This document shows, one piece after another, positions 20,299 to 23,200 of a DNA stretch of 40,549 bases. The translations under genes and the position numbers were made by a program. The stretch lies in NCBI RefSeq assembly GCF_003334765.1, contig NZ_QOWT01000035.1; one strand, given 5' to 3'. Each line of letters opens with the position of its first letter. The stretch's first letter is position 1. The notes beneath the pieces are model-generated. The model made no database searches. It was not told the DNA's origin and saw only the letters and a list, made by a program, of their open reading frames with translations. This stretch comes from Escherichia coli. GTDB taxonomy: Bacteria > Pseudomonadota > Gammaproteobacteria > Enterobacterales > Enterobacteriaceae.

Positions 20299-23200
20299 TT
20301 ACGCCTTCTCGATGTTGACTAAGAACGCTTTATATTCCGGCGTTTGCGAGTTTGCATCACCGACATTCGGCGTCAGAGTGTTAGCGATATAACCTTTACG
20401 CGCGACACCCTCAAAGCCCCAGTGGATTGGAATACCCACCGTTTCAACCTGCTGACCATTTACATTCAGCGGTTTCAGACGACGCGTTACCACAGCCACC
20501 GCGCGGATAAAGCCACGCTTGCTGGAGACAGTGACACGATCGCCATTATTAATGCCTTTCGCCGCCGCCAGCGTTTCGCTGATTTCCACAAACTGTTCCG
20601 GCTGAGCAATTGCGTTGAGCAATGCGTGCTTGGTCCAGGTGTGGAAGTGCTCGGTCAGACGATAGGTCGTACCCACATACGGGAACTGCTCTTTTTTACC
20701 CATCCGCAGCGCGTCTTGTTCATACAGACGAACAACCGGGTTAGACACCACGTTCGGATGCAGCGGGTTAGTGCCCAGCGGCGTTTCAATCGGCTCGTAG
20801 TGTTCCGGGAACGGACCTTCCGCCATTTTGTTGATGGCAAACAGGCGTCCCATCCCTTCCGGCTGCATGATAAACGGCCCGGTTGGCGTACCCGGTGCGG
20901 CATTGCCGAAGTCAGGAATATCGTTACCCGTCCACTTGCTGCCGTTCCACTGGATCAGCATCCGTTTCGGATCCCACGGTTTACCGTTGATATCCGCCGA
21001 AGCACGGTTGTACAGCACGCGACGGTTGAGCGGCCACGCCCAGGCCCATCCCAGCGTATTCCCCAGACCGGACGGGTCGGAGTTATCGCGGTTAGCCATC
21101 TGGTTGCCCTGCTCTGTCCAGCTACCGGTGTAGATCCAGCAAGAAGATGCGGTTGTACCGTCATCACGCAGATGCGCAAAGCTACTCAGCAACTGACCTT
21201 TCTTCGCAATAAGCACGCCATTAGCGTCATAGAGATCTTCCAGCGCGTAGCCGTTGTTCTCTTTAGCCACTTCGTCAGATTGCGGTTCGTGCGGCTGCTT
21301 GTAGTTCCAGCTCATCTTCATCAGCGGTTCTACGCCTTTACCACCTTCGGACTGGTACAGCTCGCGCAGATGATGGTAGATACCCGCCAGAATTTCACCG
21401 TCGTTACGCGCTTCGCCCGGCGCGTCCTGACCTTTCCAGTGCCACTGCAACCAGCGACCGGAGTTAGCGATAGAACCATCTTCTTCAGCAAAGCAGGTCG
21501 AAGGCAGACGGAATACTTCAGTCTGAATAGACGCCGGATCGACATCGTTCGACTCACCGTGGTTCTGCCAGAAGGTAGAGGTTTCAGTCACCAGCGGATC
21601 GATAACCACCATGTACTTCAGCTTGCTCAGGCAGCTCACCACTTTGTTTTTGTCCGGGAAGGACGCAACCGGGTTAAAGCCCTGGCAGAAATAACCGGTG
21701 ACTTTGCCTTCATCCATCATGTTGAAATACTTGATGACGTCGTAGGTCTGGTCCCACTTCGGCAGCCAGTCATAGCCCCAGTTGTTCTCTTTCTGCGCGG
21801 CATCGCCATAGAAAGATTTCATCAGGCTAACGAAGAACTTCGGATAGTTGCTCCAGTAGTTCACCTGATCAGCCAGCGTCGCTTTCGGCGTGTTCGCTTC
21901 CAGATACGACTGCAAATCAACCTGTTTTTCTGACGGCAGCGTCAGATAACCTGGCAGGCTGGTAGAGAGCAGGCCTAAGTCAGTCAAGCCCTGAATGTTG
22001 GAGTGACCACGCAATGCGTTCACGCCGCCACCGGCCATACCCATGTTACCGAGCAGCAACTGGATCATCGCCATAGTACGGATGTTCTGCGCACCCACAG
22101 TGTGCTGCGTCCAGCCCAGCGCGTACAGGAAGGTGGTTGTGCGATCCGGTGCGCTGGTGGAGGCCAGCACTTCACACACTTTCAGGAAGTCGGCTTTTGG
22201 CGTACCGCAGATGTTTTCAACGACGTCCGGCGTGTAGCGGGAAACGTGCTCTTTCAGCAGGTTCCACACACAGCGCGGATGAGTCAGTGTTTCATCGCGT
22301 TTCGCATAGCCGTTTTCATCGAACTGATAGTTCCAGGACGATTTATCGTATTGACGTTTTTCAGCGTCGTAGCCGCTGAACAGACCGTCTTCGAAAGCAA
22401 AATCATCACGCACCAGCAGGCTGGCGTTGGTGTAATGCTTAACGTATTCGGCGTTGATTTTGTTGTTTTCGATCAGGTAGCGCAAAACGCCAGACAGGAA
22501 CGTAATGTCCGTACCGGAACGAATAGGCGCGTAAATATCCGCCACAGAAGCGGTACGCGTAAAACGGGGATCGACAACGATCAAGGTTGCGTCGTTGTTG
22601 TTTTTCGCTTCCATCGCCCAGCGGAAACCGACGGGATGCGCTTCAGCAGCGTTACCGCCCATCACCATCACGACGTTAGCGTTTTTGATATCCACCCAGT
22701 GGTTGGTCATCGCACCGCGACCAAATGTTGGAGCAAGACTTGCTACCGTTGGTCCGTGTCAGACGCGCGCCTGGTTGTCTACCGCCAGCATCCCGAGGGA
22801 GCGGGCAAATTTCTGGGTCAGCATCCCGGTTTCGTTGCTGGCACCGGAGGCACACAGCATACCGGTAGAAAGCCAACGGTTTACCGTTACGCCCTGCTCG
22901 TTCTTTTCAATAAAGTTAGCGTCACGGTCAGCTTTCATCAGCTTCGCAATACGGGAGAATGCTTCTTCCCAGCTAATGCGCTGCCATTTGTCAGAACCTG
23001 GCGCACGATATTCCGGGTAGCGCAGACGGTTTTCACTGTTGACGTAATCCAGCAAACCGGCCCCTTTCGGGCACAGCGCACCACGGCTTACCGGATGATC
23101 CGGGTCACCTTCAATGTGATAAATCGCTTCTCTGGCGTTTTTTGCGCCATCACCCAGGCTATACATCAATAGCCCGCAACCTACGGAACAGTATGTGCAG

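Follow-up and report, generated by a model that had tools for sequence, protein, structure and literature searches.

An in-frame TGA can end a broken gene, or it can be one of the codons of an intact one. This question is raised by a long minus-strand reading frame in the 40,549-nucleotide stretch of Escherichia coli DNA analysed here (contig NZ_QOWT01000035.1 of assembly GCF_003334765.1, hereafter the window), which the program-made list of open reading frames presents as two separate pieces. The gene concerned is fdnG, whose product is the catalytic molybdopterin subunit of formate dehydrogenase-N (FdnGHI), a nitrate-inducible, periplasm-facing enzyme. We consider it close to certain, with a probability of about 0.98, that the TGA at 22761..22759 is the codon for selenocysteine (Sec) 196 of E. 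coli fdnG and that a SECIS hairpin lies downstream of it. For annotation this means that a mechanical ORF caller splits fdnG at the TGA and could call a pseudogene where there is an intact selenoprotein gene.

The Sec196 codon of fdnG and its SECIS element are already known and are textbook biology; fdnG belongs to the classic trio of E. coli selenoprotein genes. By its title, the report of Berg et al. 1991 (J Biol Chem 266:22380; cited in PMC13188914) describes an opal (UGA) codon encoding selenocysteine in fdnGHI, and the SECIS elements of the three E. coli formate dehydrogenases are the best characterised (PMC13188914). The window holds the same gene and the same element as K-12 fdnG (Sec196/SECIS; PDB 1KQF/1KQG, RF01989), with the fdnGHI operon following in the same way. 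It differs from K-12 fdnG in a strain-level polymorphism at residue 342 and in a best lower-stem register one base away from the Rfam consensus. The case serves as a positive control, in which UGA recoding is recognisable from raw sequence.

Reading frame and gene identity

The coding features of the locus were placed as follows.

20299..23346, minus strand: fdnG CDS, formate dehydrogenase-N alpha subunit, 1015 aa including Sec196 (from the frame, RefSeq, 1KQF_A and TIGR01553)
22759..22761, minus strand: UGA codon 196, predicted to be read as selenocysteine (in-frame; aligned with 1KQF_A residue 196, fdoG and fdhF)
23320..23337, minus strand: twin-arginine motif S-R-R-Q-F-F, FdnG residues 4-9 (the translation begins MDVSRRQFFKICAGG)
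19402..20286, minus strand: fdnH, Fdh-N beta iron-sulfur subunit, same operon (RefSeq; TIGR01582, 482 bits, cutoff 335)
18756..19409, minus strand: fdnI, Fdh-N gamma cytochrome b subunit, same operon (RefSeq; NF007558, 487 bits, cutoff 339)

Apart from the terminal stop, the 1016 codons translated from 23346..20299 on the minus strand contain a single stop, at codon 196. In the same frame, the ORF list holds a 195-aa piece (22759..23346, minus strand) and an 803-aa piece (20299..22710, minus strand), the latter beginning at the first ATG, 16 codons 3' of the TGA. The first-pass annotation, made from the letters and this list, had recognised that fdnG is split at TGA 22761..22759, which stands, and had described the pieces as separated only by the TGA, which does not: the TGA and 16 sense codons lie between them, and those codons are free of stops. 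Its figure of 1015 aa for the joined product, with the TGA as codon 196, agrees with both the arithmetic (195 + 1 + 16 + 803 = 1015 aa) and the translation. All 819 codons 3' of the TGA are intact, without a further stop. At the N-terminus, MDVSRRQFFK, a twin-arginine motif is present, which we take from established knowledge to be a Tat export signal and which fits the known periplasmic location of Fdh-N.

The identity of the gene was determined by comparison with annotated genomes, a protein family model and solved structures. The query 20299..23500 (3202 bases) was 100% identical to several RefSeq E. coli chromosomes, and in the matching records the 3048 nt form a single fdnG CDS, named "formate dehydrogenase-N subunit alpha" and carrying no pseudogene flag, with fdnH and fdnI coming next. 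The fdnG query was found at a coverage of at least 80% in 5426 of 5426 complete E. coli genomes. Against NCBIfam TIGR01553 the FdnG translation scored 1623 bits (cutoff 814), with residues 2-1014 lying on profile positions 1-1009. The initial naming of the gene as fdnG is thus upheld, both by the annotation of identical DNA in RefSeq and by a TIGR01553 score far above the cutoff.

The joined translation was searched with X at position 196. It aligned over residues 1-1015 with residues 1-1015 of PDB 1KQF_A ("formate dehydrogenase, nitrate-inducible, major subunit") at 2403 bits, and the single visible substitution was F342 here for L342 in the chain. Residue 196 of 1KQF_A is a non-standard residue and stands opposite the fdnG TGA. 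The runner-up solved chains were named as "selenocysteine-containing" formate dehydrogenase alpha subunits. Alignment of the joined product had been proposed as a check on the first-pass reading, and its outcome is that the two ORF pieces line up in order along a single formate dehydrogenase alpha chain, that of 1KQF_A.

Both fdnH and fdnI lie directly downstream of fdnG on the same strand, an arrangement that qualifies as an operon. In the annotation of a matching genome, the neighbours at the locus are ddp, dos, osmC, maeA, adhP, fdnGHI, yddG, narU and narZYWV. No sel genes fall within the window. With K-12 queries, selA and selB were detected in 5426 of 5426 E. coli genomes, among them 4/2-1 and ECCHD184, two strains that have the same fdnG sequence as the window.

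The hairpin downstream of the UGA

The presence of a SECIS element was predicted by covariance-model search and by folding, which gave the following features.

22706..22764, minus strand: SECIS element, full match to Rfam SECIS_3 (RF01989), model positions 1-59 (Rfam scan)
22716..22756, minus strand: paired region of the hairpin, made up of a lower stem with a bulged G, an internal loop and the upper stem-loop, drawn in the register that this sequence prefers (MFE structures)
22730..22747, minus strand: upper stem-loop GGUAGCAAGUCUUGCUCC, with 7 bp, a bulged U at 22745 and the apical loop GUC at 22739..22737

SECIS_3 (RF01989) was the sole Rfam match in the window at gathering thresholds, with a score of 84.3 bits against a gathering score of 63 and E = 9e-19 for the whole window. 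The UGA occupies model positions 4-6, and the hairpin begins 2 nt past the UGA, within the CDS. The model of the fdhF type, SECIS_2, scored 28.8 bits against its gathering score of 70, so the element was filed under SECIS_3. The span originally given for the element, 22719..22761, was right in position and left off 3 nt of the hairpin's 3' base.

When the 46 nt starting at the UGA were folded with ViennaRNA, the upper stem took the form GG-U-AGCAA / UUGCU-CC with a GUC loop. The folding energy was -12.7 kcal/mol for these 46 nt and -17.4 kcal/mol for the 59-nt element. A stem-loop just 3' of the UGA, as first proposed, is therefore recovered both by the fold at -12.7 kcal/mol and by the RF01989 match above the gathering score. 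Relative to shuffled sequences the stability of the hairpin was unexceptional, with z-scores of -1.37 (46 nt) and -0.77 (59 nt) and with 21 of 200 and 39 of 200 shuffles, respectively, folding equally well. Thermodynamics alone would thus not establish a SECIS element; it is the covariance-model match at 84.3 bits, together with the covariation described below, that raises the hairpin above chance.

Under the published criteria for bSECIS elements, the upper stem has 4-16 bp and bears an apical loop of 3-9 nt; one of the first two loop nucleotides is a G, and G or U comes next; the UGA and the loop are 16-37 nt apart; and the MFE is no higher than -7.5 kcal/mol (PMC13188914). The window element agrees with all four. 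Its 3-nt loop GUC, carried on 7 bp with one bulged U, is within both size limits; the loop context A-[GUC]-U supplies G and then U, as the bSECIS model requires; the UGA lies 19 nt from the apical loop; and the energy is -12.7 kcal/mol, or -13.8 kcal/mol for the hairpin structure named above. By analogy, the upper stem-loop at 22730..22747 (minus strand) would be the part to which SelB binds.

The element was then compared with those of the other two E. coli formate dehydrogenase genes. The K-12 gene fdoG (formate dehydrogenase-O alpha) carries an in-frame TGA at codon 196, the same codon as in fdnG, and its 59-nt SECIS is identical to that of fdnG, 71 nt being identical in all. It differs from fdnG in being a paralogue at a separate locus, fdoGHI-fdhE, and in its regulation. 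Over the first 500 codons, the two genes share 77% nucleotide and 83% amino-acid identity. The unbroken identical run of 71 nt covers CDS nt 583-653, spans the UGA and the hairpin, and extends 22 nt beyond the point where the hairpin's pairing ends; the second-longest run of identity measures 22 nt. Within codons 195-217, all 21 of the 21 codons capable of synonymous change are unchanged, against 55% elsewhere, and an unchanged run of 21 such codons arose in 11 of 20000 shuffles.

The third gene, fdhF (formate dehydrogenase-H), provides the reference bacterial SECIS (Rfam RF01988 SECIS_2, Sec140). Its TGA is at codon 140, a site aligned with fdnG codon 196, and the ARV-U-HGP context is common to fdnG, fdoG and fdhF. 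It agrees with fdnG in the 11-nt spacing of UGA and upper stem, in the GG/CC at the foot of that stem, in having a bulged U, and in reading G-U-C-U through the apical loop and just beyond it; across the 59-nt regions of the three genes, 40 of 59 columns are invariant. The fdhF product differs in being a cytoplasmic protein of 715 aa without a Tat signal, and its SECIS has the loop GGUC as opposed to (A)GUC(U) in fdnG, with a lower stem of unlike sequence. Numbered from the U of the UGA, the bulged U and the G and U of the loop are U17, G23 and U24, and we take them to be the bases reported as critical for SelB binding in fdhF. The comparison with the fdhF SECIS, suggested at the outset as a second check, accordingly shows agreement in spacing and key bases. 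The UGA is also not a genuine terminus in homologues, as both fdoG and fdhF carry an aligned TGA. With collinear ORFs and an aligned TGA in fdoG and fdhF, neither of the two findings that would speak against recoding was encountered, these being ORFs that belong to different proteins and a true end of the protein at this site in related genes.

Conservation, covariation and rival explanations

To follow the element across bacteria, a degenerate pattern with wobble positions left free was scanned against one genome per species, and at least 120 stretches were found. The matches listed comprise 67 distinct 59-mers from many bacterial genera, 66 of which were aligned. The exception, a Streptomyces sequence (L054), had no similarity downstream of the 23-nt pattern and was excluded as probably a chance or unrelated match.

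Among the matches listed, the upper helix was 99.4% paired in the 66 distinct 59-mers. Pair 21-33 was GC in 52, AU in 8 and GU in 6 of them, and pair 24-30 was AU in 46, CG in 18 and GC in 2, with no unpaired cells at either pair in these listed matches. The window has A-U at both pairs, while the majority of the matches listed have G-C at 21-33. Double changes were seen at 2 of the 7 upper-helix pairs (28 cells, among the matches listed), where covariation is scorable only at columns left free by the pattern, since columns that it fixes cannot covary. Columns 21, 33, 24 and 30 are the third positions of Val, Ala, Leu and Ala codons, so the protein does not explain the covariation.

The covariation score and the number of double-change cells among the matches listed were reached by 0 of 500 shuffles, a count that is not a probability because the 59-mers share descent. 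Sliding the 3' partners by 1-3 columns lowered the pairing from 92% to 26-58% in the 66 59-mers among the matches listed. Loop bases G26 and U27, left free by the pattern, were invariant in 66 of the 66 listed and aligned.

The exact 59-mer of the window was found at no fewer than 25 loci besides K-12 fdoG, and the genera carrying it, among the matches listed, include Enterobacter, Citrobacter, Klebsiella, Yersinia, Photorhabdus and Providencia. Third-codon identity in the flanking 150 nt of those loci was 36-94%, mostly 42-72%, again among the matches listed. Within the species, 5407 of 5434 E. coli records matched the 121 nt around the UGA at an identity of 99% or more.

Two other readings of the TGA can be weighed against these results. 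Were it a nonsense mutation, fdnG would be a pseudogene and the 195-aa and 803-aa ORFs its remnants, as the division of fdnG in the mechanical ORF list would lead one to expect. A mutation of this kind is at odds with the conservation of the surrounding 121 nt in E. coli (99% identity or more in 5407 of 5434 records), with the occurrence of the same TGA in fdoG, in fdhF and at 120 or more loci in many genera, with 819 downstream codons that are stop-free and agree with a solved protein, and with the match to a curated SECIS model. Conservation of the TGA across the species, its paralogues and many genera, together with the 819 intact codons, rules this reading out for practical purposes. Low-level insertion of Trp or Cys is known at Sec codons under selenium limitation or in sel mutants, and this general knowledge is the one point in favour of a UGA suppressed mainly by ordinary tRNA (near-cognate Trp or Cys mis-insertion) and not by SelB with Sec-tRNA(Sec). 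Such suppression is hard to reconcile with a conserved SECIS whose upper helix covaries, whose loop G-U is invariant and whose distance from the UGA is canonical, with the universal presence of selA and selB in E. coli, or with the non-standard residue 196 in the solved structure, and we regard it as extremely improbable.

A further alternative touches just one of the lines of evidence: the 71 nt that fdnG and fdoG have in common could be the product of recent gene conversion and not of selection on RNA structure. It would account for the identical block at CDS nt 583-653 overshooting the last paired base by 22 nt. Other genera, however, have this 59-mer unchanged in both of their paralogues, and loci of Yersinia, Photorhabdus and Providencia keep it where flanking third-codon identity is down to 36-52% (among the matches listed); a 59-mer frozen amid diverged flanks needs long-term purifying selection. 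The compensatory changes in distant taxa are, moreover, independent of conversion. Given the cross-genus conservation, gene conversion is unlikely as the sole cause of the fdnG/fdoG identity.

Proposed mechanism and the lower helix

For the selenocysteine reading of codon 196, we infer SelB binding, Sec insertion and the molybdenum-ligand role in FdnG by analogy, from established knowledge. The UGA at codon 196 would be decoded as selenocysteine and not as a stop. The upper stem-loop, through its bulged U and the G and U of its loop, would be bound by SelB carrying GTP and Sec-tRNA(Sec), and once the UGA is in the A site, the tethered SelB would hand over its Sec-tRNA(Sec) in competition with release factor 2 (PMC13188914). 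Translation would then proceed for 819 codons beyond the UGA, and Sec196 would become a ligand of the molybdenum centre, as it presumably does in the 1KQF structure, where we understand it to ligate the molybdenum of the bis-MGD cofactor. The lower helix has been described as melting on the approach of the ribosome, with the hairpin refolding after delivery of Sec-tRNA(Sec) (PMC13188914).

Among the matches listed, the 59-nt block is unchanged at every synonymous site across enterobacterial genera and between fdnG and fdoG. It is conceivable, if rather doubtful, that the enterobacterial fdnG/fdoG SECIS is constrained beyond the minimal SelB-binding hairpin and that the lower helix or the 3' flank is functional. 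If such extra constraint were true, ribosome pausing, competition with RF2 or refolding kinetics would be candidate roles, and a known system would thereby be refined modestly.

The pairing of the lower stem was evaluated in two registers. The Rfam-consensus register, applied to the window sequence, gave -3.3 kcal/mol with non-canonical A-C (8-48) and A-G (12-44) oppositions. Moving the register by one base and bulging G47 gave eight canonical pairs and -13.8 kcal/mol, and the consensus register was rejected as the preferred pairing of the window on this difference (-3.3 vs -13.8 kcal/mol). Among the matches listed, each of the two lower-stem registers was 86% paired over the 66 59-mers. Comparison of these sequences suggests that the lower helix may have two alternative solutions.

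The two registers appear to be marked by columns 12, 45 and 48 (window positions 22753, 22720 and 22717), which are wobble positions and whose changes are correlated: among the matches listed, they mostly read C/C/U (24) or A/U/C (15, the window being one of these). This, too, could belong to the possible extra constraint on the element considered above.

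Identity and pairing around the selenocysteine codon

The fdnG gene and its paralogue fdoG, carried on the K-12 locus L002, were compared around the selenocysteine codon. No differences were found over 71 nt, with an overall identity of 77 % across the first 1500 nt, and the identical block continues for a further 22 nt once the pairing of the SECIS hairpin has ended.

Window 22694..22764 (-), CDS nt 583-653: block identical in fdnG and fdoG; L002 5171..5241 (-)

Variation within the lower stem of the hairpin was assessed in alignment A3, consisting of 66 distinct homologous 59-mers of the SECIS region with columns numbered as positions 1-59 of SECIS_3 (RF01989). 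At three wobble positions of this stem, two linked states predominated.

Window 22753, 22720 and 22717: lower-stem wobble positions, A3 columns 12, 45 and 48 respectively

Of the aligned sequences, 24 had the combination C/C/U and 15, the window among them, had A/U/C. The two states appear to correspond to differing pairing registers, and the window's lower stem favours a register one base off the Rfam SECIS_3 consensus (-13.8 vs -3.3 kcal/mol).

Matching sequences in other replicons

There were seven fdnG-like matches among E. coli plasmids. The 294-kb plasmid NZ_CP170379.1 carries an annotated fdnG, with a SECIS region (H22, 127282..127392) 94.6 % identical to that of the window.

The 23-nt V-U-H-G-P-T-V-A pattern was also matched exactly in Streptomyces sp. 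ODS25 (locus L054, 509..531 (-)), and the sequence downstream of this match had no similarity to the SECIS_3 hairpin. The match is either due to chance or a formate-dehydrogenase selenocysteine site served by another SECIS.

Upstream region and neighbouring genes

Two motifs were observed upstream of the fdnG start. They resemble the binding sites known from the fdnG promoter, a 7-2-7 site for NarL and a site for Fnr, and both are candidates based on sequence.

Window 23472..23487 (-): inverted heptamer pair TACCGCT-AT-TGAGGTA, candidate NarL site
Window 23411..23424 (-): TTGAT-N4-CGCAA, candidate Fnr site

Among the neighbouring genes, three features were delineated.

Window about 18243..18527 (+): yddM, HigA-family antitoxin gene directly downstream of fdnI
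Window 24719..25009 (+): 96-aa ORF starting with a signal sequence of porin type, corresponding to yddL, a truncated porin pseudogene
Window 28100..31897 (+): narZ, a single unbroken ORF

The yddM assignment follows the annotation of a RefSeq E. coli genome with identical fdnG DNA, which lists no partner toxin gene beside yddM and places leucine-rich-repeat pseudogene fragments between yddL and narU. The window does not derive from strain M217, despite 100 % identity between the two in fdnG: RefSeq marks narZ of M217 as a pseudogene with an internal stop, whereas narZ in the window is intact.
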